Virus record (IMG/VR): IMGVR_UViG_3300046115_000049
Location: 1-55,937 of that record
DNA length: 55,937 nt
Source of the DNA: a virus
Direction: 5' to 3' (one strand)
Of the stretch, positions 1,587-34,481 are shown piece by piece (the first letter of the stretch is position 1; each line of letters starts with the position of its first letter). A program made the translations under genes and the position numbers. The notes below the pieces were generated by a model. That model was not told where the DNA came from. It did no database searches and saw nothing but the letters and a program-made list of their open reading frames with translations.

Positions 1587-1613
1587 GCATCGAGTTACAA
1601 TTGGGCGGCGCGA

Positions 1614-2339: not shown

Positions 2340-2343
2340 CGAT

Positions 2344-6533: not shown

Positions 6534-6538
6534 CCGCG

Positions 6539-7613: not shown

Positions 7614-7624
7614 CCGAGGATACC

Positions 7625-8538: not shown

Positions 8539-9126
8539 TTACAGGAATTCGAGCGCCCGGCTCACCCAGCCGTTAAGATTCTCAAGGTTCGTAGTTGCGT
8601 TCGTCTCGCGGAATTTAGCGACATCCGCATCCCGCAGCGCCACCTTAATATAGAAGCTGACCCGCATCTTGGCCACCAATTTGTAGACCGTCTTGGTGAG
8701 CCCGCTGTTCGACTCCATCCGTTCGCGCAGCGCCCGATGCGTCTCTGCGCCGTAGTGACCGTCCACTAATACTTTGTCCGCTCCCATCGTCCGCAGCACT
8801 GACTGTATGGCCTTAGTCGGGTCGTCCGGTCCAGATGTCGTAGCCCAGTCGAACATGAGCACGAACAGGTCCTCATTCAGCTGGCGTACCGGCATTATAG
8901 GTCCGGCTATCGAGTCGGTCAGGAATTCGTGTGCCTGCTTCTCGGTCAGCTTCGGGAAGTCGATCGGCGTAATCGGTGACCGTCCGCGAGTTCGCGCCCA
9001 CGCCGCGTAGTTCGAGAACGTGATTCCGCCCTTGGTAAGTCCACCGTCATCTGCTGGCCGATTCGTGACTTCGGGCCAGCCCTCGCGATGCAAAATATCG
9101 ACAATGATGGAGTCGAGCGCAATCAT
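8539..9126 (-). CDS. Endolysin, glycoside hydrolase family 108-like muramidase with a PG_binding_3-like C-terminus
   Basis: The motif HREGWPEVTNRPADDGGLTKGGIT matches the GH108 EGG...D.GG.T..GI pattern, and VLVDGHYGAETHRAL resembles the peptidoglycan-binding repeat. ATG at 9126 lies 2 nt after the upstream stop. Confidence 0.7.
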   Translation of the reverse strand: MIALDSIIVDILHREGWPEVTNRPADDGGLTKGGITFSNYAAWARTRGRSPITPIDFPKLTEKQAHEFLTDSIAGPIMPVRQLNEDLFVLMFDWATTSGPDDPTKAIQSVLRTMGADKVLVDGHYGAETHRALRERMESNSGLTKTVYKLVAKMRVSFYIKVALRDADVAKFRETNATTNLENLNGWVSRALEFL

Positions 9127-9128
9127 GG

Positions 9129-9743
9129 CTACGACGCCTTGAATAAGACGGTGAACGCGATATTCCAATCGTCGGTAGCGGCGGAGAAGGCACTACCGTT
9201 AGGGTGAGTGATGGTAATAAACGTGCCGCTCGCAGCTACCTGACAGACACCATCGATGGTGAGCGCGGTAGTGGATGTCTGGCCGACTAGGCACGCGTCG
9301 GCGACGGCCTCCTGCGCGGTGAGGGAATTGGGCAACGTGATACGTAGCTCATTGGGTGGACCAGCGGTAGTCGTATTGTTGAGTTTAACCGTCCAGTACA
9401 GCGTATCGCCGACCATGCGGTACGAGTCGGTTGCCACGTCGCCCGAGGCGACTGTCCACGAGCCGGTATCCGCGGTGAAATTACCCGCCACGAATGCACG
9501 AGTCTGCGTCGCCCCCATCGCGAATCCGCGACTACGCTCCGAAATCGTGGATGACGACGCGATCAGACCAGACCTGATGCCGCCAGTGCACGTCGACGAG
9601 GTAACTGCGCACCCTACCTTTAGTGATTCCGAGCTGGTGGAGATGGTATTGACGGTCGAGAATACGCCCGGTCGCTGCTGCGCGAACAGCACAGCGACAG
9701 CGGCGAATACGAACACGATAGCGAGTAGCGTCGTCTTACGCAT
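9129..9743 (-). CDS. Predicted secreted protein (Sec signal peptide), beta-rich
   Basis: The N-terminus is MRKTTLLAIVFVFAAVAVLFA|QQ. The rest is Thr/Ser/Gly rich. The gene lies between the tail fibre and the endolysin. Confidence 0.55.
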   Translation of the reverse strand: MRKTTLLAIVFVFAAVAVLFAQQRPGVFSTVNTISTSSESLKVGCAVTSSTCTGGIRSGLIASSSTISERSRGFAMGATQTRAFVAGNFTADTGSWTVASGDVATDSYRMVGDTLYWTVKLNNTTTAGPPNELRITLPNSLTAQEAVADACLVGQTSTTALTIDGVCQVAASGTFITITHPNGSAFSAATDDWNIAFTVLFKAS

Positions 9744-9761: not shown

Positions 9762-10463
9762 CTAGCTAACCTTGATGATCTTGAAGTTCCACAGGTACGC
9801 AGCCCCTGCCGCTACGCCTACCCGCGTCTTGATACCAAACCGGACCGGTGAACCGCCTGATCCGAGCGCGGCGGGAGCGAATGCGGCGGACTGCGCAAGT
9901 ACGCCAACCGTCGAGCTCGACGAGATCTCCGCGATGGAGCCAGCTGGGTTGCCATCGAGATTGACCAGTTTGCCTAGCCCCACCAGTGGTCCAGCGCCAT
10001 CCAGCATGACCATGCCCTCGATAATGTACGTACCGGTAGGCAGATCGTCCGGGTCGATGGACCAGATACCCGTACCGGCGTGGCAATCGGTATACGTACC
10101 CCCGGCCGTATACGACGCGGAAGTAACCGGAGACTCGGGGGAGCCGCCGAAGCTGAAGAATTCGCCCAGCCCTTGAGCGCCCATGAAGTTGCTGGCCGGG
10201 ATGTCATCCTGCGTGCGCACTAGTGTATCATCTGAACGGCGAAGGGTATACTTGTACGAGTTTCCGTCCGCCAAGTACACTACGCAACGTCCAGCGGCGT
10301 CAAGTATGATAGGGTTGGCATTCGGGGTAGAAAGGGCAACATCCGAATGCGTGGTTTTGGGAGTCGTGGTGCCGGGGACGTAGGTGTATAGCTTGCCGCC
10401 CGCGAGGATGGAACCATCATCGTCAAGAAACGTAAGCCATGGGACAGGGGAGAGAGTTGACAT
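9762..10463 (-). CDS. Tail fibre / tail spike N-terminal-type protein
   Basis: The N-terminus is PWLTFLDDDGSILAGGKLYTYVPGTTTPKTTHSD...NPIILDAAGR.VVYL, the widespread podovirus fibre N-terminal pattern (F.D..G.PL.GG.LYTY.AGTTTP...NP..LD..G). Confidence 0.65.
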   Translation of the reverse strand: MSTLSPVPWLTFLDDDGSILAGGKLYTYVPGTTTPKTTHSDVALSTPNANPIILDAAGRCVVYLADGNSYKYTLRRSDDTLVRTQDDIPASNFMGAQGLGEFFSFGGSPESPVTSASYTAGGTYTDCHAGTGIWSIDPDDLPTGTYIIEGMVMLDGAGPLVGLGKLVNLDGNPAGSIAEISSSSTVGVLAQSAAFAPAALGSGGSPVRFGIKTRVGVAAGAAYLWNFKIIKVS

Positions 10464-17440: not shown

Positions 17441-17451
17441 GGATTATCCGC

Positions 17452-19222: not shown

Positions 19223-19704
19223 CGGATGGACTCTACTACTGCGATGAACGTATATTGCATCGTCGTCTCCCCACTGGACGCGTAGGTAATTTCGTAGTCA
19301 ATCGTCGTCCCCTCGTCGATCTCGACTACGAGTGCCGCCTGACCGAGTGTGGTCGTAGTGTTGCCGGTCAACGCCGTCGCTACTATAGATTGCGCGACCC
19401 CCCCGTGTGTAAAATGGATTGTAACAGTTAGCGATGACGACGTGGTAGCCGCCCGCGTCACTCGGGCGAAGTAATTGATGCGGTAGGTCCCGGCCGCAAG
19501 AGGAGACGGAAGCGCGAAGGGTGTCTGCGCGATCGTCGCGGACTGATCTTCGAGTTCCGCTTCTCCGAGCAGTAATGGTATGTGTCGTTCTGCTAACCCT
19601 CGTAGCCACTGTTCCCATTCCTTCAACACCTCACCCGTCCCGAAATTCGGCTTGACAGCCGCAATCGGAATACGACTGGGGATGGGTTGGTACTGATGTG
19701 ACAT
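19219..19704 (-). CDS. Beta-rich structural protein (tail needle/plug position in a P22-type order)
   Basis: 161-aa ORF immediately downstream of the gp10-like gene. No motif was recognised. Confidence 0.4.
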   Translation of the reverse strand: MSHQYQPIPSRIPIAAVKPNFGTGEVLKEWEQWLRGLAERHIPLLLGEAELEDQSATIAQTPFALPSPLAAGTYRINYFARVTRAATTSSSLTVTIHFTHGGVAQSIVATALTGNTTTTLGQAALVVEIDEGTTIDYEITYASSGETTMQYTFIAVVESIR

Positions 19705-21149
19705 TATGACACCCGTAGATATGCGTTAATGATATGCCACGGGACTGGATCACTCATGGCGATCTCGAATACGCGGCGATCGGATTGGCCGAGTTTGTTG
19801 AACTCTACGCGCGTTTTCCACTTTCCTATTGCCCCGGACGAGCGGGTATGTTCGTTACCCCACGTAACGGCACCGTTATTCGACATCCGCATCATCACGA
19901 GTGGATTCGAGCCCTGTCCACTCTCCAGCCCTCGTCCTACGGCCATGTCGATACCCAGCTGGTGATAGCGAATGCGTCGTCCGGCAGCGGCGACGTGGGG
20001 AAAGCGCCGCACCCTGCGTATTTCGGCATCCGCCACGTCAGAGTGATGCTGCATTCCTACCGCATAGATGTTACCTCCATGTAGATCACAGAACAAGTGC
20101 TTGTCGAAGGCGAACGCGTGATGCGTGAATCGCCACGCTCGCTCGCGCGTGTTATTCGCATCCCAATACATGCGCTCATGCCACATTCCCGTAGACCGAT
20201 CGAGTGTCCACGTCGCGTCGGCGTCCGGGAAGGTAAGAACGTAATGCTCATGTCCGTCCATCTCATGAACGGTGCCGATCGCGTCGTCAATCGTGGCACC
20301 GGCGCGGACGTAATCCTGTATCGCCGCCTCCACGGCGTGGTTACTTACTCGGGCGGGAGCGTATTGGGTAGCCTGCATAACTACGCCGCCACCCTTATCT
20401 CCTTTAGCTAGCCAGATGACGCCGGTGCCGAATTCGGCTATCGATGCGCGAGCGGCGATGCCCTCAGTGTGGTACGCGCCTTGAATCGGCAAGAATGGGA
20501 ACGGGTGCGCCCCCGCATTGTACCATACTTCATACGACTTGGTGCCTAGCAGCCAGATTTCACGATGAATGACCACCATTGCGACCCACTTGTCTGACCC
20601 GATAGCGCGAACGCGAAATTGGGTAGGGTCCCACGTAGTGCCATCGGCGTAAGCGCTAATCTTCAATTCGCTATTCTCGGTCAGCACGAGGAAGAATCCG
20701 TCGAGGTACGCTCCCGCTATCGCTGAGTCTATATCGGCAATTCGGGTGAACGTATTGGCAACGAGATCGAACAGGTACGCCGAGCCCCCCGACGTGACGA
20801 GAAGCTCTTGTCCGATTTCGCCACTAGAGCTGATGGTGACAGGATGGTTATTAACGTCGACGGGTCCGTAATCGACGAGGATTCCGGCGGAGGTGAACTC
20901 ATAGAAGATTCCTCCAATAACCGTGAAGCCTCTACCATCTTGATGAAATATACCGCGCCCATGAGAGTTCGAGGACGTTGCGAACGTAGTAGCGCCCGGA
21001 GTCGGCACCAATGATAGTTGGTTCTTACCATTAGGGACCTCAACTATTTCAGGAAACAGATTTACGCAGCGCTCAGCATCGGCGACGCCGAAGCGGGTTT
21101 TGTAAGTCGGACCAACGAAGCCGGGGAACGGGATGGCGCCTTTAACCAT
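19704..21149 (-). CDS. P22 gp10-like packaged-DNA stabilisation / tail hub protein
   Basis: 481 aa. It shows the patterns CVNLFPE....GKNQLSLVPTPG...GRG...DGRGFTVIGGIFYEF and SAYADGTTWDP.QF..A.GSD....V..HREIWLLGTKSYEVWYNAG, as in gp10-type beta-propeller proteins. Confidence 0.55.
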   Translation of the reverse strand: MVKGAIPFPGFVGPTYKTRFGVADAERCVNLFPEIVEVPNGKNQLSLVPTPGATTFATSSNSHGRGIFHQDGRGFTVIGGIFYEFTSAGILVDYGPVDVNNHPVTISSSGEIGQELLVTSGGSAYLFDLVANTFTRIADIDSAIAGAYLDGFFLVLTENSELKISAYADGTTWDPTQFRVRAIGSDKWVAMVVIHREIWLLGTKSYEVWYNAGAHPFPFLPIQGAYHTEGIAARASIAEFGTGVIWLAKGDKGGGVVMQATQYAPARVSNHAVEAAIQDYVRAGATIDDAIGTVHEMDGHEHYVLTFPDADATWTLDRSTGMWHERMYWDANNTRERAWRFTHHAFAFDKHLFCDLHGGNIYAVGMQHHSDVADAEIRRVRRFPHVAAAGRRIRYHQLGIDMAVGRGLESGQGSNPLVMMRMSNNGAVTWGNEHTRSSGAIGKWKTRVEFNKLGQSDRRVFEIAMSDPVPWHIINAYLRVS

Positions 21150-21865
21150 TAGTGTCCGGTCCGGTAATCGAATCCGCTACCGCCAGTGCGGCGGTTGCCG
21201 CGAGTAATGGCGGTATCGACCGGCACAACCTCGGGAATGATGTTCTGGATCATGATGTCGGCCTTCGAATCCTCGGCCTGTTTGATCAAGCGCTGCGAAG
21301 GCTCGATCTCATAGCCGGGGGCTAGCTCGACGGCGAGATTCGTGCGAATCGCCCGAGCGTAACCGGGCGGGAAGGCGTATAAGGTCGTCGGGGTAGTGAA
21401 CTGGGACAACACCAGCGGACAATACAGGATAAGGTTGACGCTAACACTCGGCACCGGGTACAGATACAGATTGCTGAGCGGGTTGGCACGATCGTTATAC
21501 AGCAGGTGTGGAATGGACGACTGCGTTGCCTTCAACGGTACTCGCTGCCATTCAGCCACGTCATCCGTCACATACAGCGGGGTCTCGTGCCCTTCGTGCA
21601 CGATGCTGGCTTTATTCATGAACACAGGGCGAGCACGATTAAAGTTGCCGCCCACACCGATGGTGCGGGTGGACGCGCCGCCTGTCCACGTCAGCGGTAC
21701 TCGTTCGGTCGTGTAGACGATGAGACGGTCGATGGCCCAGGCGTCAATCATATCATTGAGATCGGCGAACCCATCGGCTAGGTCTTCCGCCTCAAGCGTC
21801 TCACCGGCGGCGACAACGCCAATGGACTTGAGCGCCCGAGTTATGAACGATTGAGCGTGAGGCAT
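21149..21865 (-). CDS. P22 gp4-like head-completion / tail adaptor protein
   Basis: The N-terminus FITRALKSIGVVAAGETLEAEDLADGFADLNDMIDAW matches the gp4-type pattern (AL..LGV....L..E......L..M...W). It sits directly upstream of the gp10-like gene. Confidence 0.55.
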   Translation of the reverse strand: MPHAQSFITRALKSIGVVAAGETLEAEDLADGFADLNDMIDAWAIDRLIVYTTERVPLTWTGGASTRTIGVGGNFNRARPVFMNKASIVHEGHETPLYVTDDVAEWQRVPLKATQSSIPHLLYNDRANPLSNLYLYPVPSVSVNLILYCPLVLSQFTTPTTLYAFPPGYARAIRTNLAVELAPGYEIEPSQRLIKQAEDSKADIMIQNIIPEVVPVDTAITRGNRRTGGSGFDYRTGH

Positions 21866-22239: not shown

Positions 22240-22578
22240 TTACCTGCCCCCTTCTTCTTTGCCTTTTTCTTTTTCTTTGCCATCGATCACCGCCTTTGAT
22301 TTCTTGCCGGTGCGCGCATCGAGCTTCTCGCCCGGGTTTGCCTTAGCGTAGAGCGATTCGAGTGCCTTGATTGCTGCTTCGTACACGACGCCGACGTCCG
22401 CTACTTCTCCTTTGACGAAGCGTGACTGGAGGAGCTGGGCCTCGCCAAGCTGCTTATTACAGTGACCAAGTTCATCCAGCTTCTGTCCCAGTAGCGCCTT
22501 GTAATCCACGGTCGTCTGTGCGGACAAGGCCACGAACATCAGTGCTGTCGTTACTACCGTCGCTACTCTGTGCCTCAT
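22240..22578 (-). CDS. Small secreted protein (Sec signal peptide); possibly a spanin-like lysis component
   Basis: ATG at 22578 gives MRHRVATVVTTALMFVALSA|QTT. The C-terminus is Lys/Glu rich. Confidence 0.45.
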   Translation of the reverse strand: MRHRVATVVTTALMFVALSAQTTVDYKALLGQKLDELGHCNKQLGEAQLLQSRFVKGEVADVGVVYEAAIKALESLYAKANPGEKLDARTGKKSKAVIDGKEKEKGKEEGGR

Positions 22579-22626: not shown

Positions 22627-22974
22627 CTACGTCGTACGATTCTTGTTCCCGTCATCTACCGGGTACGAGATCTGGGGAATGTGGTCGGTTGGGGTTGAAG
22701 CCGGGGCGAACGTCCCCTCCTTCGCGATCAGATCCTTCACGCCCTCATACGTCCAGCCCGGAGGGAGCGCCAGCGATGTGTTAACGAGGCGTCGATCCTT
22801 CACCTTGTTCCACGCAATCCACGCAGTGCCCCCTACCGCCAGTGTGATGCCAGTAACCAGCTGCGGCACTTGATCCTCTTTTAAAACACCTTCCTGAATC
22901 AAATACCCGATGACTCCCCCGAGAGCCAGCCGTACCAAGCCTCCAATGATTGAGATCCAGATCGTCGGCATCAC
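22627..22974 (-). CDS. Two-TMD membrane protein, holin candidate
   Basis: 115 aa with two hydrophobic helices (IWISIIGGLVRLALGGVIGYLI and LVTGITLAVGGTAWIAW) and a charged tail. Confidence 0.45.
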   Translation of the reverse strand: MMPTIWISIIGGLVRLALGGVIGYLIQEGVLKEDQVPQLVTGITLAVGGTAWIAWNKVKDRRLVNTSLALPPGWTYEGVKDLIAKEGTFAPASTPTDHIPQISYPVDDGNKNRTT

Positions 22975-22983
22975 TCACTCCTT

Positions 22984-23202
22984 CTATTTAGGTACGTGCG
23001 TCCAGCAGGCATCGACCGGCTGCGTACCAGCCCGGATGCAGGCTCGGACCTGACCTTCCGAAATCTCACCAACTTGCACTTTAATCGCCTGAATCTCAAA
23101 GAAGTAGGTATAGGTCATCACACCGGCAAGTACAAGTGCGACAACAGCCCACAGGCCATCTTTAGACCAGACCTGCTCCAAGATCCGTACGTACCAAGGC
23201 AT
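22984..23202 (-). CDS. Single-TMD small membrane protein (holin/antiholin candidate)
   Basis: 72 aa with the helix GLWAVVALVLAGVMTYTYFF. Confidence 0.4.
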   Translation of the reverse strand: MPWYVRILEQVWSKDGLWAVVALVLAGVMTYTYFFEIQAIKVQVGEISEGQVRACIRAGTQPVDACWTHVPK

Positions 23203-23597
23203 CAGCGTACGTAGCGCAATCTCCCGGAGGCGATGTCCTCACAGGTCTTGCGCGATCGGTCGGCCGTTTCGTTTCCAGAGATGCAGGCTTCTAGCATCAG
23301 GTTCACCGAGAGCAATTCGCGCTCCTCCGCCCGTTTCGCCCGTACGTCCGCCTCTACCGCCAAGACTTCCAGTCGCTCCATCCGTTTCGCCGCCACTTGG
23401 TCGCTTTCCACGTGCGCCAGATGCGCCTTTTCTGCACGGAGATCCGCTCCGATGTAGGCTGAGAGCCACTGGAATCCAGCGAAGAACGTCGCGAGGATGA
23501 ACACGTTCTTCCACCCACCTAGCGCCTTCGTGAGTTTACCGAATGACTCCAGTTCTTTCCCGAAAGCTGTAGCAAACACCGCCCAGATAGGCATCAT
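23202..23597 (-). CDS. Membrane protein with a coiled-coil domain (i-spanin-like candidate)
   Basis: 131 aa with hydrophobic segments (MMPIWAVFATAF, VFILATFFAGFQWL) followed by a charged helical region. Confidence 0.4.
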   Translation of the reverse strand: MMPIWAVFATAFGKELESFGKLTKALGGWKNVFILATFFAGFQWLSAYIGADLRAEKAHLAHVESDQVAAKRMERLEVLAVEADVRAKRAEERELLSVNLMLEACISGNETADRSRKTCEDIASGRLRYVR

Positions 23598-25220
23598 CTA
23601 CCTCTTTGCAGCCCCAAACGTACGATCCAAGAACGGTACCGGTGCCGACGCTGCAGGAATGTTTGCGCGCGGGATGCGGACGAAGTATGCGTCCATGCGA
23701 TCTGTCCCGCCGTTCGTCATCACTAGCAGCCAGCGCCCGTCGCTAGACATCGGCGGCTTCGGTGCGCCATAGTAGGGAGCCGTCTCGTCGCCACCCTTAC
23801 CGGCCGCGTCGAAGTCCGTCATCGACGGCCCGACCACTAGCCACTGTGCCGCACCCCAGAACCCACACACTAGCTCGCGCTCGATCGTCCAGTCGTTATC
23901 TGGCGCCGGAGACGTGGTTAACGTGCAGGCGATCTGTTGATTGAACGGCAACACGGCCGTGTCCTGCGCCGTGAGCATCGTTGGCTGGACGAAGCTGTTC
24001 GAGCCGAACTCCACGTTGTGATAGACGGACGGCGGCGCGGTGCCCATCGCCGGCATCGACAGGAATTGGTTATGTCGCAGATCTTGCCCGAGCGAGCTGT
24101 GATTATCTTCCGCGACGTAGCCCTGCCACACCGGGCTCAAGTGGCCTGGCGCACCGTCCTGGTCGCACCAGATCGTCGTCGTATCGAGGGTGAAGTCGCG
24201 GACGTACATGTCCGCGCCGTGCGCGCCAGGGTTCGTCGGATGCGACTCGCACTCTACGGCTTGATTGATCCATGTGCCGAAACGCCCATCAGGCGTGATG
24301 CCCGAGTCGCCGCCACCCATGCCGAAGTACGTTGTTGTGTTCGCCGTGGACCAATCGTCGATGAACGCATTGCAGATGAACCCGTCGTCCGGGTCGAGCA
24401 CGTAGAACGTCGCGACGATCTTCCCCGCAGACGCGGTGTAGCCGTTATTGGCGATGTAGAACGACCAGACGTTCGCATTCGCAATCGAGGCCGCGGTCAC
24501 GCCGCAATTCGTCGCCACGAGATCGCGAAAGGTCGAGTTCTGAATGTCGAGCAGCAGCTCGCAGTCGCCTGCGTCGGTTGAGTCGAGCGGCAGGTTAGCC
24601 GTGGCCGCGTTGCAACGACGAATCTCGCTGTCTACCGTGATGTACAGGATGTCGGCCTCGGTCGGGGACACCATCCAGTTATCCGTGCGGCTGTTGACCC
24701 CGGCCAGCCGATCACCCGTACCGAACAACCGCGTCTTGGTCCGCACGGCTGGCTGCTGCGAGAAGTCCACGCAGACCTTGAACGCGCCCGAGTACGCCAG
24801 CACGATGACCGCGCACACCGGCGTGCCGGGGTCCGCGTCCTGCTGCCGTCCGCGCGAGAAGAACTGCGCCTTATTGCTGTACCACGCCTGCCGTACGCAG
24901 TCATCGACCGTGCCTTCAAGGTCCGGGTCAATCGTCCCGTCAACGCAGTCGTTCGCGTCCGTCAGGCGGTACCATAGCGTCCCGTATGGACTGCCCATCG
25001 TGAACGCGCCATGCGTGGCCGGAACACCCATCGTCGCCCAATCGAAGGCGTCCTGATCGCGCTTCGCGCCGGGCGAGGCCACCGTGAACACGATACCGCC
25101 CGTGCTGTCGGACAGCTGCTCGCCACCAGCATTGATGACAATGCCGATCCGGATCTGTGCCGCTACAGGTGACGACAGCACCAAGATTAGCGCCGCGATC
25201 ATCAACCTAAAAATTCGCAT
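23598..25220 (-). CDS. Predicted secreted beta-propeller-like protein (possible polysaccharide-degrading enzyme)
   Basis: 540 aa. The signal peptide is MRIFRLMIAALILVLSSPVAA|QI. The C-terminal SSDGRWLLVMTNGGTDRMDAYFVRIP is a TolB/propeller-type blade motif. Confidence 0.5.
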   Translation of the reverse strand: MRIFRLMIAALILVLSSPVAAQIRIGIVINAGGEQLSDSTGGIVFTVASPGAKRDQDAFDWATMGVPATHGAFTMGSPYGTLWYRLTDANDCVDGTIDPDLEGTVDDCVRQAWYSNKAQFFSRGRQQDADPGTPVCAVIVLAYSGAFKVCVDFSQQPAVRTKTRLFGTGDRLAGVNSRTDNWMVSPTEADILYITVDSEIRRCNAATANLPLDSTDAGDCELLLDIQNSTFRDLVATNCGVTAASIANANVWSFYIANNGYTASAGKIVATFYVLDPDDGFICNAFIDDWSTANTTTYFGMGGGDSGITPDGRFGTWINQAVECESHPTNPGAHGADMYVRDFTLDTTTIWCDQDGAPGHLSPVWQGYVAEDNHSSLGQDLRHNQFLSMPAMGTAPPSVYHNVEFGSNSFVQPTMLTAQDTAVLPFNQQIACTLTTSPAPDNDWTIERELVCGFWGAAQWLVVGPSMTDFDAAGKGGDETAPYYGAPKPPMSSDGRWLLVMTNGGTDRMDAYFVRIPRANIPAASAPVPFLDRTFGAAKR

Positions 25221-26041
25221 TACCAGCTCCTCCAGCCAGTCCGTTGTGCGGGTCTACCTACCTTGATATTACCATTGGGCAGTCGCGTAACGCTAGGCAG
25301 CAGGTACGACCACCCGCCGCCGCGAAGCGGAAAATTGGGCACGATGCCCGGGACGAACGACGCCCCGCTGCCATCCTCACTGATCGCCCACCCTATGTCG
25401 AATGCCGCCTGCGTCCCGGAGAATGTCCACGTGAAATTGTATGACTCCGCACCGGTCGCGCGCCGATGCGCACAATTTACGTATACCGTGCCATCGTTGC
25501 CATTCATGTTGGTTTCAGATGTCGCACCGCTAGACGTAACAGTAGAGACGGCGGTAGCGGCAAGACACCCGATCATCAACGCTGGACCCGTCGAGGTAAT
25601 CGTCACACCGGTATATGGAGCACCGGTAGCGGACCCGTTGGAAGATCCGGTCGGTGTGTGCTGAATACAGGGTGACGCGACGATACCGGAGAAGATCGGC
25701 GCAACTAGCACCGATGCCGTGCCGCCGGGATCGTCAATCGTATGTAGCGTCGAACCGCCAGCGGCGCGGCACAATATCCAGCCGTTAACGCTGCTGCCGA
25801 GCGCCTGCACGGAGTTAATCGCCGAGTAGGTATTCCCGGAGGATGAAGGCGTACCATCCGACTGGATACCCAGTTTTACCACGAACAACATGACCGTCTC
25901 GTCCGCGTTCGGGCTGTTCGTGATTTCGTAGTCGTCCGGATCACCGGTGACCGGCGTCGGCGCAGACACGAAGGCGTACGCGGCGAGTAGCACCGCAGTA
26001 GCCGACATGCACAACAATAGCGATAATACGAATTTCTTCAT
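25220..26041 (-). CDS. Predicted secreted protein, paralog of 26038-26679
   Basis: The start ATG at 26041 overlaps the upstream stop (ATGA). The signal peptide is MKKFVLSLLLCMSATAVLLAAYA|F. It shares a C-terminal PGIVPNFPLRG motif with its neighbour (PGIIPNFIWRG). Confidence 0.5.
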   Translation of the reverse strand: MKKFVLSLLLCMSATAVLLAAYAFVSAPTPVTGDPDDYEITNSPNADETVMLFVVKLGIQSDGTPSSSGNTYSAINSVQALGSSVNGWILCRAAGGSTLHTIDDPGGTASVLVAPIFSGIVASPCIQHTPTGSSNGSATGAPYTGVTITSTGPALMIGCLAATAVSTVTSSGATSETNMNGNDGTVYVNCAHRRATGAESYNFTWTFSGTQAAFDIGWAISEDGSGASFVPGIVPNFPLRGGGWSYLLPSVTRLPNGNIKVGRPAQRTGWRSW

Positions 26042-26679
26042 CGCTGCGCTCTCCGCACTTGACGCATATTCGGCAACTGGAACCCGAATACCGGCTTGCT
26101 TCCTCGCCAAATAAAATTAGGGATGATACCCGGCGATGATACACTATACTCGACCGCCATGCGCGTGAAATCCACCGCCAGTGTGTTAGTCGCGTCAGTA
26201 GACCAGATGACCCCACTAAATGTTCCTGAATTGATCATCGCTGCCGTGATCGCCGCGCTCCACAAGTCCGCGATTCCACCATTAGAGGATACTACCTTTG
26301 TTGTCCCATTAACTGTAACCGCCGACTTGGCCGACCCGATTAGCGTGGGCGTCGTATTCGAAGCAAGTTGTGGAATGTAGTTCGAGTTACCCGTACCCGT
26401 CTCACTCGCTTCGATGTCGAATGTTACACCGCCAACCGTCGCCCCAGCCGGTATAGAGAAGGAGAAGTTGCACACTAGGTAGTCGGACGGCACTACTACC
26501 GTCGCATCGGTCGCGTTATCGGACGCAGCGTTAGTAGGATTCGTCCATGCGGTCTGCGCGGCACGGTCGACGTTAGCACAGGTAGTCGGAAATACATTAC
26601 CCGTACTGGTCGCCAGTAATACGGCGGTCGCCAGTAGCAATGCTAACACGACTACGGCCCCTTTGTGCTTAAACGCCAT
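26038..26679 (-). CDS. Predicted secreted or membrane-anchored protein
   Basis: 213 aa. The N-terminus is MAFKHKGAVVVLALLLATAVLLATSTG. The C-terminal motif is PGIIPNFIWRG. Confidence 0.5.
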   Translation of the reverse strand: MAFKHKGAVVVLALLLATAVLLATSTGNVFPTTCANVDRAAQTAWTNPTNAASDNATDATVVVPSDYLVCNFSFSIPAGATVGGVTFDIEASETGTGNSNYIPQLASNTTPTLIGSAKSAVTVNGTTKVVSSNGGIADLWSAAITAAMINSGTFSGVIWSTDATNTLAVDFTRMAVEYSVSSPGIIPNFIWRGSKPVFGFQLPNMRQVRRAQR

Positions 26680-26684
26680 GTCAT

Positions 26685-29042
26685 CTACTTAATGGTGCGA
26701 TAGCGCCACGAGAGCGCGATAAGGTCAGCATCCACATTGATCGTGTCAGAGCCATCAGCGGGTTCGTGATATAGCCTCACATACCACTGCTGATTAGCCG
26801 AACACGTAACTAGTGGCTTATCCGCCGTAGCCTCAACTGTCAATGTTGCGTCGTTCAGATCCTGCACCGCATTCTCGGCCGCATCGGTCACTGAGCTCGG
26901 CGACGTGCTATATGCGGTGGGAATTTGTGCGCTGTTACCAGCGCATATGCCCTGCACCTTCCACAGCACGTTACCGCTGGTAGCGTTCGCCTTCCATCGG
27001 AGCAGGAACTCGACTGCCTTAGTAAGGTCGATGTCAGGCGGCAAGGGGACCGTAAGTTGTACCTCCTGCGTACCCGAGTCGGCGAAACGGACGATAGGCT
27101 GGACGACGGTGGTACCGGTGAACGTCGCGGTAGCTGCACCGGAAGTGTTAGTATTGAAGCCGAGACTCGACGTACCGTTCTGCGTAGCGGCGGGGGTAAA
27201 GATGGAAATGATAGGAATGGTGATCGTGTTGCCGGATGCCTCAGCATCGATCGTCTTCTCGGTCAAGGTGGCGGTATTCGACGAAGTTAGGGCAAGTACC
27301 CCTTCAATCGTCATCTGCCCTGCTGCCGATCGCGCGAGCGTGGTGTCCGTGTTATTCAGTTCAATCGTGGGAATGGTCTGCGCCCCGACGAACGTCTGTG
27401 CCGCGTCAATCCGGGCCAGTGAGAACGCCGCATCCGGTACGGTCCACGTTCGCGCGGCCGTGGGGCCGGTCACGGTGATGATCTGCGGGATGATCGGAAT
27501 CGACGTGTTTGAGTCGGGCGCGGTCCACACGCGGATGTTCGCCGTAGTCAGCCCGTCTACCTCGATCCGCACTTCCTTAGTGTTATCTCCAGAACCCTCG
27601 ACTAGCGACGTCGTGTCGGTGAACGGTGCCGCTGCCGCAGAGGCCGACAGCGTACCGCCCGAGAAGGACAGCCCGCTACCGATTATCGCGGCCTTGATCA
27701 AGTCGTCGGCGTTGTCGAAGTAGAGTAGTTCGATCACCGACCCGCCAGCCGGGGTAAATGATGGCAGCGCGTTACCCCCGAACGTCGTCCCAGCCGGTAG
27801 AGCTACCGTGTGGCTACTGATGTCGAACGACGCGGGAATCGTAATGGTCGGGTTGCCCGAGCAGTTGCCGTTCGAGACTTCGATCTTGCTAGCCGTCCCG
27901 GTTACGGTGCGCGCGGCTAGATCGCCCGAAGTGGTCGTCACCCCGAGACAGCCCGTGGAGAGCGAACCTAGCGCGAATTCGGCCGACAGCGACCCATTCG
28001 CTGTCTTGGTAATGTACGTCGCATCGGTTGGCGCTCCTGCACCACCCGCACCGAGTGCCACGTTCGCGCCATTGATCCGCGCCGTCATCTCGTTGGCCGT
28101 CGAGTCGTACCATATATCCCCGTTGGTGGGCGTGCTGGGGTCACCCGCTAACGATCCGATGTTCAACCCCGCCACCGTAGCGCCGGGGTTGAACGTAACG
28201 CGGATGTTGTCCTCGAAACTTACCGTCCCTGTGAGCGACAGCAGGTTAACCACGGGGCTATCGATATTCGGAGCCGTCTCCCGTACCGCGCCACCCGCTC
28301 CAGTAGCGGCGGAACCAAACAACGTGTCCACCATCGCCGCTACGGTCACATCATCGAGTACCGTGCGTGCGACTGCGGTAATGGTCGCTGTCTCGGGGAC
28401 ACCGGTCGAGGCGGTAATGCGGCCGATGAACTGATCCTGCGCTAGATCGGCCAACATCGCCAGCGTGACCCCGGCCGTCGCGATCTGTACGTCGTTGGCG
28501 TTAACCGTGATTCCTGCACCAGCAATAACGTTGAGCGTCACCGTACCCGTGGTGCCGCCTCCCGTCATGCCCGCACCAGCAGTTACGCCCTCGATGTCGC
28601 CAACGCCTCCGCCGCCTCCACCGGGGGGATTCGCCCCCATTGCCGCGCCACGCGTGACTGTGACGATAGCCGTGCCCGACGTCCACGCAGTAGCGCGGAG
28701 ACGGACGCGGAGGATGCCGACGTTTGACCGGTAGTACTGGCCGGTAGCGGTAATAGTCGTAGTGGCGGCGTCGTCCACCAACCCGTACAACTGCGTTTCC
28801 ACCCACGTCACACCGTCGCTGGTAGTCTCGATGGTCAGCGTACCGGTGAACGTTCCGCCTACCTGAACAGTGAATGAGGGTGTGTTGTTGTTGCCTAGGA
28901 CGAACGACGCGCACGTTGGTGCAGCCGTGTTCTCGACGCAGGTCCCGCCTGATACCGTGTTAATCGGCTTGGTGTCGATCACCTGAGCCGAAACGGTAAC
29001 CGGCACCGCTAGCGCCAGCAGGAGCACTAAAAGTCGCTTCAT
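26685..29042 (-). CDS. Large fibre-like protein with a Sec signal peptide
   Basis: ATG at 29042 lies 5 nt after aaggaga. The signal peptide is MKRLLVLLLALAVPVTVSA|QV. 785 aa, Thr/Ala/Gly-rich beta repeats, a GGGGGG hinge and a GDIWYDSTANEM fibre-like motif. Confidence 0.6.
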   Translation of the reverse strand: MKRLLVLLLALAVPVTVSAQVIDTKPINTVSGGTCVENTAAPTCASFVLGNNNTPSFTVQVGGTFTGTLTIETTSDGVTWVETQLYGLVDDAATTTITATGQYYRSNVGILRVRLRATAWTSGTAIVTVTRGAAMGANPPGGGGGGVGDIEGVTAGAGMTGGGTTGTVTLNVIAGAGITVNANDVQIATAGVTLAMLADLAQDQFIGRITASTGVPETATITAVARTVLDDVTVAAMVDTLFGSAATGAGGAVRETAPNIDSPVVNLLSLTGTVSFEDNIRVTFNPGATVAGLNIGSLAGDPSTPTNGDIWYDSTANEMTARINGANVALGAGGAGAPTDATYITKTANGSLSAEFALGSLSTGCLGVTTTSGDLAARTVTGTASKIEVSNGNCSGNPTITIPASFDISSHTVALPAGTTFGGNALPSFTPAGGSVIELLYFDNADDLIKAAIIGSGLSFSGGTLSASAAAAPFTDTTSLVEGSGDNTKEVRIEVDGLTTANIRVWTAPDSNTSIPIIPQIITVTGPTAARTWTVPDAAFSLARIDAAQTFVGAQTIPTIELNNTDTTLARSAAGQMTIEGVLALTSSNTATLTEKTIDAEASGNTITIPIISIFTPAATQNGTSSLGFNTNTSGAATATFTGTTVVQPIVRFADSGTQEVQLTVPLPPDIDLTKAVEFLLRWKANATSGNVLWKVQGICAGNSAQIPTAYSTSPSSVTDAAENAVQDLNDATLTVEATADKPLVTCSANQQWYVRLYHEPADGSDTINVDADLIALSWRYRTIK

Positions 29043-29103
29043 ATTGTCTCCTTGGATAGGGATGTGGACCGGAACACGATGTCCCGGCCCATCCCCTAGC
29101 GCC

Positions 29104-29874
29104 TTAGCTGAGGGTGCAGTTACGCGCCGAGACGATGTACCAGTTGCCGCCCGATGCGCGGACGGAAATCTGGTTACCGATCGCGGCAGTGAACGTGCAA
29201 AGGTCAGTGGCGGTCGAACCGGCATTGAAGCCGATGGTGGTCGCCGTGACCGTGTGTGCCTGTGCGGTGATGGCCGAGATGTCCAGCACCATGCCATCCT
29301 GCGCGGATGTCGGAGCCGCTAGCGTCATCGCAATCGCACCGCCCGACCCGAGCAAGTGCAGCCCGGGCATGACGGTGATTGCGCCCGACGCGGTGTAGGT
29401 CTGGGTCGGCCCCGGCAGCGGTGCCGAGAATCCGTTCAGCCTCCAACGGTTGACGCCCGCTGTCGTGCCCTTGCAATCGTATACGCTGCCAAACGCTGTT
29501 ACCGCAGGCAGCGCGACGAATGCAGTGGCCGTACACGGGCCGGGTGAAAGATCGGCGGGCAGGAAGTAATTCGCGGGTCCCGCGAACACCACCGCCCCCG
29601 ATGCGTGCAACCCGGCTCGAGATCCGTTCACGCCACGAGAGACGGTAATCGTCGTCCCCGAGACGGACTGGATCTGGAACATCTCCCCGTCCACGACGGC
29701 GAAGTAACCCGCCACGAACCCGGTCGCGGATGCGACCCTGAACGTGTTGGCACCTGTCGATGTGACTGCAGCTGCAAGCGTCGTCTGCGTGGTCGTGGAC
29801 TGCGTGCTCACCGGCACCGACATAGCGATGAGGGCAAGGAGAGCGATCGCGAAACGGGTAAAGATCTTCTTCAA
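29104..29874 (-). CDS. Predicted secreted protein with a phage fibre/decoration-type N-domain
   Basis: TTG start after gggggaga. The N-terminus is (M)KKIFTRFAIALLALIAMSVPVST|QS. It is followed by VASATGFVAGYFAVVDGEMFQIQSVSGTTITVSRGVNGSRAGLHASGAVV, matching the common phage E.m.v.sv.g.tltV.RG..gt.a..H motif. Confidence 0.55.
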   Translation of the reverse strand: MKKIFTRFAIALLALIAMSVPVSTQSTTTQTTLAAAVTSTGANTFRVASATGFVAGYFAVVDGEMFQIQSVSGTTITVSRGVNGSRAGLHASGAVVFAGPANYFLPADLSPGPCTATAFVALPAVTAFGSVYDCKGTTAGVNRWRLNGFSAPLPGPTQTYTASGAITVMPGLHLLGSGGAIAMTLAAPTSAQDGMVLDISAITAQAHTVTATTIGFNAGSTATDLCTFTAAIGNQISVRASGGNWYIVSARNCTLS

Positions 29875-29884
29875 TGTCTCCCCC

Positions 29885-31087
29885 CTACGCCGCCACGCGG
29901 CAAATGAGCTCGGGCCGGAGGAGACGGATTCCGTAGAATACGTCCAACCGACACGGCATGTTGTTTGTGTTGATGTCGTACTGGCGAATCATACGAATCG
30001 CGAGTCCCGACTGCTTGGACGACGCACGCCCGGCCATGTCGACGCCGCCCGGGAGCGGGAGATCGACAGAGGCGAACGCGATGGCGTCCGGGTGAAGTGC
30101 GAGACCCTGACGAGACACAGCACCGGTTGCGCCGAGCACGGTGATCGGCGCGTTGTCAGCCGGTGAGCCGCTGACGGTCTTCTGCTGCGGAACGATGACG
30201 ATCGACGGCGAGATCTTGATCGTCATAGCGCCAGCGGTGTCACTGATCAACTCGCGAACCACGAATCGCTGGAGCTGCTCCGTGTTCTCGCGGGACTGCA
30301 TGTTGATCTTGTACACGCCTGCCAAGGTGAATACATCGCCCTTGTTGAGAGTCGACGCACCCGAGCTCCATCCGTCCGTGATCAGTTCGTTGCCGATCTG
30401 GTTTGCGCCATTGACGAGCGGTGTACCAGCGTACACACCGTACGTGTGAGTCTTCAGGTTCTGACTCGTGTACCACGTGAAGCCAGCCGCCCTAGTGATA
30501 CGACCCTTGACGTACTGCTTCGAGATCTGTTCAGCATCCTCGGTCAGGCCGCGCAGACCGTTGACGATCTTTGCACCCATGTAGGGGGAGATGAACATAC
30601 CCCGACTGTCATCATCGGGAGCGGAGTTGTCATCGAGCGCAACGCCCGCCATGAGATACGTTTCCAGATCCGTGATGGGCGTGCCGGGAGTGCCGACGTG
30701 CTCATACACCTGATCGTAGATGGCCGCGATGTCCGAGTCGATCTTGTTGGCGATAGCGGCGACGGCAGGTGAAATGAATCGCTTGCTGAAGTCGTCGATC
30801 GACAGCACGAGATCGGCCTGCGAAAAGACGAGATCGACGCCAAACGGCACATCGATCGCGACAGACACCAACTCTTCCTGCGCATCCTCAGGCGAAAGAC
30901 CCCAACCCGAACGGCCGATGTAACGCGGCGGTTTGCGAACGTTGACTACCGCACCAGCCTTGGCCCCCTCGACCGCGAACTCCTTCGAGTATGCGCGGTT
31001 GGTGTGGCGGAGAAGAACGAGCTTGTTCTCCAGCACCTTGAGGGCTTCGCGCGTGATGATGGTAGATGTTAGAAGCGTGTTTGCCAT
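29885..31087 (-). CDS. Major capsid protein, P22-type coat (HK97 fold)
   Basis: 400 aa. The N-terminus is TREALKVLENKLVLLRHTNRAYSKEF and the C-terminus is RLDVFYGIRLLRPELICRV, both typical of P22-coat-family proteins. It sits directly after the scaffold gene. Confidence 0.8.
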   Translation of the reverse strand: MANTLLTSTIITREALKVLENKLVLLRHTNRAYSKEFAVEGAKAGAVVNVRKPPRYIGRSGWGLSPEDAQEELVSVAIDVPFGVDLVFSQADLVLSIDDFSKRFISPAVAAIANKIDSDIAAIYDQVYEHVGTPGTPITDLETYLMAGVALDDNSAPDDDSRGMFISPYMGAKIVNGLRGLTEDAEQISKQYVKGRITRAAGFTWYTSQNLKTHTYGVYAGTPLVNGANQIGNELITDGWSSGASTLNKGDVFTLAGVYKINMQSRENTEQLQRFVVRELISDTAGAMTIKISPSIVIVPQQKTVSGSPADNAPITVLGATGAVSRQGLALHPDAIAFASVDLPLPGGVDMAGRASSKQSGLAIRMIRQYDINTNNMPCRLDVFYGIRLLRPELICRVAA

Positions 31088-32198: not shown

Positions 32199-34481
32199 CT
32201 ATTGCATAGTCGGAGCCACATCTGCGGGAGCGGGAGGCGCGGCCTCGGGACCCGGAGGTGCGATACCGGGAGGCGGTACAGGTGGTGCGGCCTCCTCAAC
32301 AGGCGGCGTAGCCAGCGCCTCCAGCATCGCCTGCGCCCGGTCGATCTCGGCTTGAGTGAGCTGAATGGCGCGATCTGCATTGATCTTGGCCTCCGTCTGC
32401 ATTAGCCTGACCAGATTCTCCATTGCCGCGATCCGGATCTTCGCCTCCATCTCGGCCTTCTTGATGCGCTCATTCGATGCAGCCTTGACCGCATCCGTAT
32501 CAACGGCCTTCTGTAGTTCTTGATACGCGTTCTGCATCTTCTGAATCATCGCGGCGACCTGTGGCGGCAGCGGACCCGGGTCGAGGATGTGTGGCGGTAC
32601 CATCGAGCGCAGCCGCTCAGCAACCTTGGGCGCATCCGGCCAATCCATGTTCTGGACGAGCAGGTCAGCGATGAGAGGCGCGGCGTCCGGGTACATACGG
32701 ATCAGCTGTAGCATCGACTCGACCGCCTCTTGGCGCTTGGTGCCCGGGTTAGAGCGTGCGCTGACCGACACGTCGTAGCGGCCAACCGAAATATCGTATA
32801 CTCCCTCGATACCCGCCTTAAGAAGCACATCCTTCTTGTCGGGCGCGACTGGACCGATGGCGATTCGTCGTTCGCTTCCCGTCTCCCCGAGCACACGAAG
32901 AATACGGGATGGGGTGTAAATCTTAGGGATCAGATCGATGACGATACGGCCAGCGAGGCGAACCGAGCGGGCCAGATTGTCCGAGTAATTCGACGTGCCC
33001 AGTTCGGCCTGCTTCTGCAGCGCCAATACCTGTCTTCCCGATGTCTCCGGCCCGGCTTGACCTAGCGACGGGTTGTACATCCCCATCGCATTCTTCAGGG
33101 AGGTGTCGGATAGCTGGAACGCGGCGACGACAGCGCTGATATCGGGCGCGAATGGTTGTCGAGCGGGGATGGGCGCGAGCTGACCGCCCACCGTAACATG
33201 AGCGACTTCGAGAAACGGGAAGTTGCGCAGGTGCGCCTGATTCCACTTAGTCTCGTGTCCCTTGAATTGACCGGCGTAGCCGATATACGGGGCACGCGGG
33301 GAGATCGCAATTAGCTCCGTGAGCGCCGACATCCAGAATGAGATCATACGGGCCGGGTCACGTGCATCTCGGACCATGCCGCGAAGATTGCGCTTGCCAT
33401 CGATGTAGGCTTCGTCACCGATTACAGGGACAATCGGGATATAGCTACCCGGCCAGACACGGCCTTCAGTGTTGTTCTCGCGACCATTGTTACCCTCGAG
33501 AATCTGGAAGCCGGTGATCTTGGCCCACTTGACCGTTACGTGCTCGATGATACGGCGGTTCGTCTCTTTGTAGGTAGCGGGAAACGGCTTAGGGACGTCC
33601 TTCGCGGGCATCGAGTGACGAACAACGATGCCGTCCGCGCCTACAAATTCTACCTCGACAAACTCCTCCTTCTCGATCTCTTTGTACCAATACTCAGCAA
33701 TGCGAATAGTTTGAGTGTCACCGCCTCCCCAGCCACACGTGGCATCGTACGCGCCCTCGAAAATGCGGGAGTTGGTGATAGCGGCCTTACCGAAATCATT
33801 CTCGAAACGGTCAACAGGCACGTCCTCAACTATGAACTTGAAATGACCATCCTGCCCCTCCGGCTGCACGTGATCCGGGTCCTCGTAGACGGAGAACGCA
33901 TTCGGGATACGGCGCAGAACGATGACCTGATCGAAGCCATCATCAGCCGCGTACTCAGTGAGAATGCGAAAATATCCGCGCCCCATCGTAAGCTGCTGCT
34001 CACACGCCGTCGAATACGCTACGTCGGCGTCCGACCCGCGCTCGATGGTACGAACCATATCGCGAAGGACGTCGGCGATGCTCATGGAAGCGCGATTGTT
34101 AGCTGGGTCAACCGCGATGGATGGACGAGAGGCGCGTTGACCGTTGGCGATCTGGCGAATGTATTGAGGGATATGGTTGACGGTGAGACAAGGACGGCCG
34201 TCGGCTTGGCGATTATCGCGCGATGCCTTGTCCCAGTGGTCGGATTGCTCGAAGCGACGATCCTCCATCATCTCGGCGCGTAGATCGGACTCCGCATCGA
34301 TGACGGACTGGAAGCGCTTGATGGCCTTATCAAGGAACGCGCGTACCTTGGCGGCGTTGGTCGCCGTCTCGCGCAGTTCCTTGTTGGTAGACGTGCCCTC
34401 AGCCGTCTCAACGGTGATAGTGTCGGTTGACGGATGGGGGTCTTCGATAGTCGGAGGACGACGGCGGTTACGTGGGGCCAT
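32199..34481 (-). CDS. Portal protein (P22-portal-like)
   Basis: 760 aa. The block DHWDKASRDNRQADGRPCLTVNHIPQYIRQIANGQRASRPSIAV.P...ADVLRDMVRTIERGSDADVAYSTA...GRGYFRILTEY follows the P22-type portal pattern. It lies between the terminase and scaffold genes. Confidence 0.8.
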   Translation of the reverse strand: MAPRNRRRPPTIEDPHPSTDTITVETAEGTSTNKELRETATNAAKVRAFLDKAIKRFQSVIDAESDLRAEMMEDRRFEQSDHWDKASRDNRQADGRPCLTVNHIPQYIRQIANGQRASRPSIAVDPANNRASMSIADVLRDMVRTIERGSDADVAYSTACEQQLTMGRGYFRILTEYAADDGFDQVIVLRRIPNAFSVYEDPDHVQPEGQDGHFKFIVEDVPVDRFENDFGKAAITNSRIFEGAYDATCGWGGGDTQTIRIAEYWYKEIEKEEFVEVEFVGADGIVVRHSMPAKDVPKPFPATYKETNRRIIEHVTVKWAKITGFQILEGNNGRENNTEGRVWPGSYIPIVPVIGDEAYIDGKRNLRGMVRDARDPARMISFWMSALTELIAISPRAPYIGYAGQFKGHETKWNQAHLRNFPFLEVAHVTVGGQLAPIPARQPFAPDISAVVAAFQLSDTSLKNAMGMYNPSLGQAGPETSGRQVLALQKQAELGTSNYSDNLARSVRLAGRIVIDLIPKIYTPSRILRVLGETGSERRIAIGPVAPDKKDVLLKAGIEGVYDISVGRYDVSVSARSNPGTKRQEAVESMLQLIRMYPDAAPLIADLLVQNMDWPDAPKVAERLRSMVPPHILDPGPLPPQVAAMIQKMQNAYQELQKAVDTDAVKAASNERIKKAEMEAKIRIAAMENLVRLMQTEAKINADRAIQLTQAEIDRAQAMLEALATPPVEEAAPPVPPPGIAPPGPEAAPPAPADVAPTMQ

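Follow-up and report, generated by a model that had tools for sequence, protein, structure and literature searches.

Tailed-phage virions are, by the textbook account, assembled entirely in the cytoplasm, from cysteine-poor proteins. Why, then, should the late operon of such a phage contain a run of fibre-like genes whose products begin as secreted proteins do? The question is raised by IMG/VR virus record IMGVR_UViG_3300046115_000049, of which the whole stretch of 55,937 nucleotides, called the window here, was analysed. Five consecutive genes on its minus strand, designated A to E, lie between the genes for the coat protein and for a gp4-type tail adaptor. A preliminary description of positions 23598-29874 had counted six consecutive signal-peptide genes there; the run is present, but it has five members, as the product of the next gene, F, has an internal transmembrane segment. 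That the leaders of A to E are genuine Sec export signals on fibre- and depolymerase-like proteins, as had been proposed, is well supported by comparison with their homologues, and our analysis suggests that a group of phages folds such proteins outside the cytoplasm, which has not been described for tailed phages.

Leaders were called with a crude heuristic of our own, based on n-, h- and c-regions and an A-X-A-type site, which requires positive charge in the n-region and, next to it, an h-region 8-15 residues long that is hydrophobic and uncharged, all inside the first ~30. All five proteins are positive (slashes mark predicted cuts; late genes lie on the minus strand throughout). A (256 amino acids, aa; 29104..29874) begins with MKKIFTRFAIALLALIAMSVPVST/Q (nucleotides 29874-29803), B (785 aa; 26685..29042) with MKRLLVLLLALAVPVTVSA/Q (29042-28986), C (213 aa; 26038..26679) with a leader or signal anchor, MAFKHKGAVVVLALLLATAVLLA/TSTGNVFP (26679-26611), D (273 aa; 25220..26041) with MKKFVLSLLLCMSATAVLLAAYA/F (26041-25973) and the Cys-rich E (540 aa; 23598..25220) with MRIFRLMIAALILVLSSPVAA/Q (25220-25158). 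Two further proteins for which leaders had been claimed, of 112 aa (22240..22578; ..FVALSA/QT) and 204 aa (9129..9743; ..AVAVLFA/QQ), are positive as well. The other late proteins were negative in 19 of 20 cases, the exception being the endolysin with its weakly hydrophobic N-terminus, and the same test on the three closest deposited relatives gave 1/35, 0/16 and 0/19 positives, so that five leaders in a row are far beyond chance. Predicted junctions read VSA/Q in B, VAA/Q in E, AYA/F in D, LSA/Q in the 112-aa protein and LFA/Q in the 204-aa protein, those of A (VST/Q or TQS/T) and C (LLA/T) being less canonical. Neither a lipobox (L-x-[GAS]-C) nor a twin-arginine motif (S/T-R-R-x-F-L-K) was found in the leaders. 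Positive charge lies before the h-region and not after it, which predicts an N-in/C-out orientation with the mature part translocated. A PEP-CTERM or type IX secretion system C-terminal sorting signal on C, D and B was considered and rejected, having neither Pfam or NCBIfam support nor a terminal transmembrane segment.

Three lines of evidence independent of the heuristic indicate that the leaders are real: conservation among homologues, cysteine statistics, and families that have members with and without a leader. Five homologues of E, 65-72% identical to it, have leaders that cannot be aligned with its own, yet retain a K/R start, a hydrophobic core and, at the junction, A/G-Q; every cassette member found in contigs L006, L007, L011, L012, L013 and L019 is likewise leader-bearing. 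The mature parts of A, B, C, D, E and the 204-aa protein contain 4, 6, 2, 4, 12 and 4 cysteines, all even numbers and 1.4% overall, whereas the terminase, portal, coat, adaptor, hub and 323-, 553-, 772- and 960-aa proteins have 0-3 each (~0.24% overall), with none in the last four. Eleven cysteines of E are invariant across its five close homologues. Dutton and colleagues reportedly found in 2008 that an even-numbered enrichment of cysteines marks proteins folded by the periplasmic disulfide machinery. The same trend separates members of one family: the median number of cysteines in C proteins is 4 where a leader is present and 1 where it is absent, and among the 119 best B homologues listed, 38 of which have leaders, cysteine content is 0.90% with a leader and 0.37% without, an x-x-[AGS]/Q junction being present in 29/38 and 8/81 respectively. 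The C family also shows how a leader is added. Some 70 of its 90 homologues (55-69% identity) are leaderless and start directly at M[AP]STGNVFP, and in 9-12 a leader is grafted exactly before the STGNVFP motif, as in C itself.

The least probable of the alternatives that we have considered is that these hydrophobic N-termini are tethers, assembly helices or gene-call artefacts on ordinary fibres assembled in the cytoplasm. All characterised tailed-phage fibres do assemble there, the leaders were called by heuristic only, and the −1 residue of A (Thr) and the site of C are atypical. Artefactual starts, however, are hard to reconcile with start codons fixed by Shine-Dalgarno (SD) motifs or by overlapping stop and start codons (ATGA at C/D, TAATG at D/E), in agreement with an independent gene caller run on the Logan copy of the contig (256, 785, 213, 273 and 540 aa); downstream starts that skip the leaders were ruled out, there being no in-frame start with an SD motif past the h-regions. 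Further points against this reading are the charge distribution, leaders conserved in kind rather than in sequence, an even-numbered cysteine enrichment confined to the leader-bearing members of a family, and leaderless C homologues that start exactly where the leader of C ends.

What follows the leaders resembles parts of tail fibres. Residues 24-100 of A form a small beta domain frequent in such fibres (PHROGs 9851, 1101 and 2885; E-values 3e-7 to 2e-4) and precede a ~150-aa C-terminal domain that contains its four cysteines; an A homologue in L011 is 44% identical, with a leader ending in FA/Q. B had been described as fibre-like with a poly-Gly hinge, and does comprise, after its leader, an N-domain of ~115 aa, a hinge of six glycines (GGGGGG), a mosaic shaft (residues ~140-400) and a C-terminal domain (590-785). 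The shaft is common to 348 homologues, many with Pfam Mtd_N, DUF5907 or Peptidase_S74 domains, and its conserved module FIGRxTASTGVPETATITAAARTVLDD occurs in proteins of all three kinds; judged by these modules, B is a mosaic tail-fibre homologue. Its C-terminal domain (~190 residues) is present in all six B-like proteins examined (28-77% identity) and, in a wider search, in 13 proteins, nine of them leader-bearing. No known virion-attachment domain was recognised at the N-terminus of B, where the beta domain after the leader is shared with only three proteins. These N-domains match within a P22-like pair of phages (55% identity over ~300 residues) and within a T7-like pair (49% over 43 residues), and no match was found between the pairs; in this small sample of two plus two phages the N-domain appears to track virion type, the pattern expected of a virion-attachment end.

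C consists of a highly conserved ~165-aa domain and a basic C-terminal tail with the motif PGIIPNF..RG, and mature D carries PGIVPNF..RG at its C-terminus. The two had been taken for paralogs, but this motif of ~35 residues (E = 3e-4) is all that they share. Leader-bearing homologues of D were found in L006, L007 and L011 (26-36% identity). None of B, C, D and E could be assigned to a family in Pfam, PHROGs, NCBIfam or PADLOC, where the only matches were to the tail-fibre domain of A and to the holin; PDB sequence searches with A, B and the E profile returned nothing meaningful.

The propeller that had been suspected in E is borne out by an AlphaFold2 model and by Foldseek. The model is a seven-bladed beta-propeller (predicted local distance difference test score, pLDDT, 77.7; predicted template-modelling score 0.82) when built with distant relatives from a search of 1.84 billion representatives; with the seven close homologues alone, pLDDT was 36. 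Its top PDB matches are the PL22 oligogalacturonate lyases (Ogl) 3c5m and 3pe7, which have the same seven-bladed propeller (E = 8e-9; template-modelling score by target 0.65-0.67). Sequence does not place E in PL22: it has no Pfam, PHROG, NCBIfam or PDB sequence match, and identity in the structural alignment is ~10%. Ogl is a cytoplasmic enzyme that binds Mn through a His cluster; E has a single near-invariant His and 12 cysteines. Conserved residues (near-invariant D337, H360, D372, N373, E449, R508 and D510) suggest an active or ligand site, and a lyase activity is putative, from likeness of fold. Most of the 188 distant relatives are cellular, secreted and multidomain: a leader of their own, often ending in AQ, is followed by the E-like domain and then by Big_7, Big_13, fn3 or LamG. 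As these relatives are secreted and cellular, E comes from a natively extracytoplasmic family.

The set also recurs outside the window. B-C-D-E, preceded by A or by another small leader protein, is found in a second P22-like phage (L011, 65% GC) in the same coat-to-gp4 slot, in a temperate phage (L007-L010, 68% GC) at the end of the late region, in L006, in a 60-kb phage (L012) next to a lysozyme gene, and in T7-like phages (L013/L014 and L019) directly after gp14/15/16-like genes, which places it in the slot of the gp17 tail fibre. Lysis genes and an integrase come next in L019, and no further fibre gene intervenes. The gap between coat and gp4/gp10-type genes had been put at ~8 kb and regarded as a departure from P22-type modules. 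It measures 8.0 kb from the coat stop (29885) to the gp4-like start (21865), but it is not unique, since two of the closest deposited relatives, the Manatee Spring phages MW202520 and MW202674, have 5-8 kb of leaderless fibre genes in this slot. The best explanation is that A to E constitute a horizontally mobile late-gene cassette, in which A, B and C derive from tail fibres and E is a captured secreted propeller. A tblastn search of 50,697 deposited phage genomes detected no homologue of B, C or E, megablast of the 19-35 kb region against GenBank phages found nothing, and a literature search for signal-peptide tail fibres yielded no leader-bearing tail-fibre cassette, only a note on Porphyromonas gingivalis phages. 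What seems new here, judging from the genes, is a tail-fibre/depolymerase cassette that combines Sec leaders with predicted disulfides.

These comparisons support the view that a late-made, fibre-derived and presumably glycan-directed set of proteins is exported and folded outside the cytoplasm. Is it then used on the virion? This gains real support from the gp17 slot that the cassette takes in T7-like phages, from B N-domains that seem to track virion type, and from the one conventional spike that the window appears to retain. This is a leaderless protein of 233 aa (9762..10463), residues 4-109 of which match the N-terminal part of the tailspike of Xanthomonas phage PBR31 at 35% identity, and fibre genes just upstream of the gp4-like gene in MW202520 and MW202674 at 36-40%; the region matched is the tailspike's virion-binding domain (PMC10975493). 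No other window protein has the virion-binding domain of this group of tailspikes, and as it is followed by only ~120 residues, the 233-aa protein could be a stub spike or an adaptor.

We therefore put forward, tentatively and at somewhat less than an even chance, that A to E are fibre/depolymerase proteins matured in the periplasm, deployed at lysis and then docked on the virion; with the same reserve, a widespread group of uncultured podophages would export receptor-binding fibres and a depolymerase-like propeller through the host Sec system and assemble their virions in two compartments. In the scheme that follows we infer the actual export, the formation of a complex, the time and site of docking and the enzymatic activity. 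A to E would be produced late, alongside the virion proteins, pass through Sec and be processed by signal peptidase I, in most cases at a site that exposes a Gln; in a Q-rule host (see below) this Gln would leave pyroglutamate-capped N-termini. They would fold with disulfide bonds in the periplasm, where the B fibre, with A as a further component, would bear C, D and the lyase-like E at its conserved C-terminal domain; candidate interfaces are the C-terminal domain common to the B proteins and the motif that C and D share. Once the envelope has been opened by the holin and transmembrane proteins, the endolysin and the spanin-like F, the complex, already folded, would meet particles assembled in the cytoplasm, dock to their tails through the lineage-specific N-terminal domain of B, possibly via the 233-aa stub spike, and work there as receptor-binding/depolymerase apparatus. 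Docking after membrane breach, though unprecedented, seems physically plausible because P22 tailspikes and T4 fibres attach to finished particles in vitro and because local concentrations at lysis would be high.

Several considerations weigh against docking. We know of no tailed phage that adds fibres from the periplasm, and the prior is consequently low. All cassette members are known from uncultured metagenomic phages, as genes alone, and their leaders were predicted with our heuristic rather than with SignalP. The correlation between B N-domains and virion type comes from the two pairs of phages mentioned, and the T7-like match from only 43 residues. The part of the L019 contig that was analysed covers ~20 kb of its 47 kb, so another fibre gene may lie elsewhere on it, and in the window the 960-aa protein could be the phage's own spike. 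Finally, E is unusually conserved for a part that binds receptors, and its relatives are free secreted cellular proteins, which fits a soluble enzyme equally well.

This last point leads to an alternative that we consider somewhat less likely than docking, namely that the set is exported and folded in the periplasm and never joins the virion. Set free at lysis, the glycan-binding fibre and the lyase-like enzyme would degrade or mask host exopolysaccharide or receptors on debris and neighbouring matrix and thereby aid the escape of progeny, in the manner of a receptor-destroying enzyme. The PL22-lyase-like fold of E with its conserved polar residues would suit such a role, as would the fusion of its secreted cellular relatives to Big_7, Big_13, fn3 and LamG and an enzyme-like conservation of 65-72% over phages of 58-68% GC; the window, moreover, keeps a leaderless protein with a virion-binding domain and, in the 960-aa protein, a potential spike of its own. 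A free set would, however, leave the T7-like L013 and L019 with no visible receptor-binding protein in the fibre slot, and would explain neither why the B N-domains follow virion type nor why leaderless versions of B and C are found in ordinary fibre clusters. We retain docking as the preferred reading.

The genes downstream of E bear on another possibility, that the cassette is a lysis-accessory set attacking an outer envelope layer (capsule, S-layer anchor or outer-membrane glycan) from within. The E stop abuts the start of F (131 aa; 23202..23597), which by hydropathy is i-spanin-like, with a transmembrane segment at residues 32-50, a coiled coil and two cysteines. Then come a single-pass membrane protein (72 aa; 22984..23202) with two C-terminal cysteines, a holin of the Pam3 gp28 family (114 aa; 22627..22971; PF23987, 33.1 bits against a cutoff of 27) and the 112-aa protein, a coiled-coil candidate for a spanin partner, the predicted leader of which is of type I, not type II. 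Homologues of the 112-aa protein accompany the cassette in L007-L010 (37% identity) and L011 (32%), and F moves with it too (31% identity in L007-L010); in L007-L010 the cassette is directly followed by counterparts of the 112-aa protein and F, together with genes for a holin-like protein, an endolysin and an integrase. A separate detail of L007 is that its 112-aa homologue (7513-7866) is in another frame and overlaps the 3' end of the E homologue P0004, whose 654-aa call is probably overextended.

That the cassette is always contiguous with holin and transmembrane genes, shares F and the 112-aa protein with L007-L010 and L011, and contains the enzyme-like fold of E would suit an accessory to lysis, and no lipoprotein o-spanin (a lipobox protein) was evident near F, so that some other means of disrupting the outer layer may be needed. 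We nevertheless give this explanation only a small chance. Adjacency is uninformative, since tail-fibre genes usually lie beside lysis cassettes; a 785-aa homologue of trimeric fibres with a swappable shaft is not expected in a lysis factor, and the endolysin of the window is 13 kb from the cassette.

Gln is at the predicted +1 position in five of the seven window leaders (A, B, E and the 112- and 204-aa proteins), as the preliminary description had it, which fits the published Q-rule, Gln at +1 of the signal peptidase I site in most substrates, a feature specific to Bacteroidetes with few outliers (Bochtler et al. 2018, PMC5837995). High Q-values are also found in Ignavibacterium and some Chlorobi-like taxa (PMC5837995), and in a Q-rule host the exposed Gln is cyclised to pyroglutamate, which guards against aminopeptidases (PMC5837995, PMC10653852). 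A GC content of 58-68% and partial use of SD motifs are atypical for classical Bacteroidota. A/Q junctions also look common in Acidobacteriota and Gemmatimonadota, and the coat, portal and GH108 endolysin of the window resemble those of Proteobacteria phages. Searches of genome contigs for a host gave no match with the E profile and two irrelevant matches to metagenome-assembled genomes (one Bacillota, one Urbifossiella) with the B shaft motif; a scan of IMG/VR found nothing with E and one distant contig with the coat.

The SD motifs themselves are less prominent than the strong usage previously claimed: GGAG, GAGG or AGGA lies upstream of 10 of the 27 late genes, against a background of 9.6%, and mostly of cassette genes. 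They are concentrated in cassette and lysis genes (A, B, D, E, F and the holin) and are absent from terminase, portal, scaffold and coat, a distribution which hints that the cassette derives from a phage with other translation-initiation signals. Within the operon the genes are tightly packed, A starting 10 nt past the coat stop. Promoter-like sites in the block number 6 (3.8±1.8 expected from shuffled sequence) and terminator-like sites 7 (6.8±2.9 expected), none of these sites flanking it; given the codon overlaps and the lack of any such excess, the five genes belong to the late transcript. The sole sizeable intergenic gap of the block, 61 nt between A and B, is occupied by a stem-loop with no T-run (29043..29103, minus strand; −29.5 kcal/mol, z −2.9, none of 200 shuffles as stable), which may determine how stable the mRNA is or in what ratio A and B are expressed.

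This organisation is pertinent to the idea that the cassette is a superinfection-exclusion or receptor-masking arsenal that alters the receptors of the infected or lysogenic cell. There is a parallel in prophages of P. gingivalis, for whose Q-rule signal-peptide proteins a role in modifying the cell surface has been proposed (Matrishin et al. 2023, PMC10367356), and integrases in L008, L009 and L019 mark some of the cassette phages as temperate. The likeness to the P. gingivalis proteins is one of leader kind: in both cases phage-encoded Sec/signal peptidase I leaders expose Gln on cleavage and may exploit the export and pyroglutamate pathway of the host (PMC10367356), but those genes are scattered, in phages of a low-GC Bacteroidota host, whereas A to E form a contiguous fibre/enzyme cassette within a late operon, at 58-68% GC. 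The chance that exclusion is the explanation seems to us smaller still than that of a lysis accessory. The genes are translationally coupled members of the late structural operon and lack a separate promoter or terminator, no integrase was present among the window open reading frames checked, and PADLOC gave no match. The exclusion proteins known so far are small, either membrane proteins or lipoproteins, unlike the large fibre-like A to E, and export to the periplasm alone would not reach surface receptors. Identification of the cassette as a moron or lysogenic-conversion locus was rejected on the same ground, the absence of a flanking promoter or terminator. Of the three functions that had been offered for the block, an unconventional route of fibre attachment has gained support, an accessory to lysis is possible, and superinfection exclusion or envelope remodelling is the weakest.

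Comparison with characterised systems shows where the cassette departs from them. T7 gp17, P22 gp9 and the PBR31 tailspike share with the cassette the shaft modules of B, the fibre slot and mosaic domain swapping; the cassette differs from them in its leaders and paired cysteines, and in having the virion-binding domain on a separate leaderless protein, that of 233 aa. Signal-peptide and signal-anchor-release (SAR) endolysins such as fOg44 Lys44 and P1 Lyz are late proteins exported by Sec before lysis, and so provide a precedent for pre-positioning in the periplasm and use at lysis; they are single muralytic enzymes, whereas A to E are fibre-like and propeller proteins with no muralytic domain. 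Fibre-like adhesins that work outside the cytoplasm include the MAT fibres of Bdellovibrio and PblA and PblB of Streptococcus mitis phage SM1. MAT fibres are encoded by cellular genes, and PblA and PblB are leaderless and reach the surface through phage lysis, so neither is a leader-bearing late-operon cassette. Lambda lom/bor-type morons do place signal-peptide proteins among late and tail genes, with a promoter and terminator of their own and expression in lysogens; they are single small genes, unlike the five coupled large genes here, which show no excess of promoters or terminators.

If correct, docking of periplasm-folded parts on a virion would be categorically new, with no known route of this kind in tailed phages. 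The cassette, which takes the sole fibre slot in some phages, would mean either that some phages complete their particles in this way or that they ship a dedicated secreted fibre-enzyme complex beside their virions. Either outcome would alter the prediction of receptor-binding proteins and depolymerases from phage metagenomes, since proteins with a leader are as a rule set aside as non-structural. The cassette would also offer disulfide-stabilised glycan-binding modules for engineering, and the B and C pairs with and without leaders amount to a natural experiment that can be tested directly.

The remainder of the window is that of a podophage. An exact direct terminal repeat of 127 bp (1-127 and 55811-55937) indicates a complete genome of ~55.8 kb, circular or terminally redundant; Logan run SRR35441057 and a JGI metagenome contain the same contig. 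One long late operon on the minus strand runs from the terminase (35101-36669) to the GH108 endolysin. After the terminase come a P22-type portal (32199-34481), a scaffold and the P22-type major coat protein that bounds the block upstream (400 aa; 29885..31087; PF11651), which is 42-44% identical to the coats of Xanthomonas phage PBR31 and the Manatee Spring phages. A to F, the 72-aa membrane protein, the holin and the 112-aa protein are followed by a 118-aa coiled-coil protein and then, as the downstream boundary, by the gp4-type tail adaptor (238 aa; 21149..21865; PF11650, P22_Tail-4; phrog_12985, 1e-41; phrog_637, Ad3). A gp10-type head-closure/tail hub (481 aa; 19704..21149; PF11134, Phage_stabilise; phrog_578, 7e-83) and ejection-protein-like genes lead to the 960-, 233- and 204-aa proteins and finally the endolysin (8539..9168; GH108 and PG_binding_3).

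The lysis genes are thus split, the endolysin being 13 kb from the holin (22627-22971). The endolysin N-terminus, RLIQGVVAMIALDSIIV, resembles that of SAR endolysins, and by hydropathy the enzyme is possibly of this type. The leader-bearing 204-aa protein, which adjoins it, had no match in family searches. It has a positional parallel in Xanthomonas phage PBR31 (L001, 24674-25483, annotated as 'putative structural protein'), where a leader-bearing fibre-like protein of 269 aa, MKKLIALFSLFCTSAFG/A, with four cysteines in its mature part, lies between tailspike and holin; the PBR31 paper does not discuss it (PMC10975493).

On the plus strand, positions 270-8281 contain a gene set typical of Z-genome (2-aminoadenine) phages, with matches to PurZ, MazZ, DpoZ and DatZ: a PurA-like adenylosuccinate synthetase (270-1586; PF00709, 1.5e-40), a protein with a dATP/dGTP diphosphohydrolase N-domain (2516-3331), a family-A DNA polymerase fused to an N-terminal domain of the uracil-DNA glycosylase superfamily (3873-6533) and an HD/YfbR-like phosphohydrolase (7625-8281). 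In the T7-like contigs, the gp16-like internal virion proteins of ~2,100 aa (L013, 2842-9147; L019, 920-7267) have zero cysteines and contain LPD22 and ART-PolyVal (ADP-ribosyltransferase) domains. L012 has, downstream of its lysis cassette (16771-21059), a second run of four leader- or anchor-bearing proteins, of 517, 218, 138 and 564 aa.

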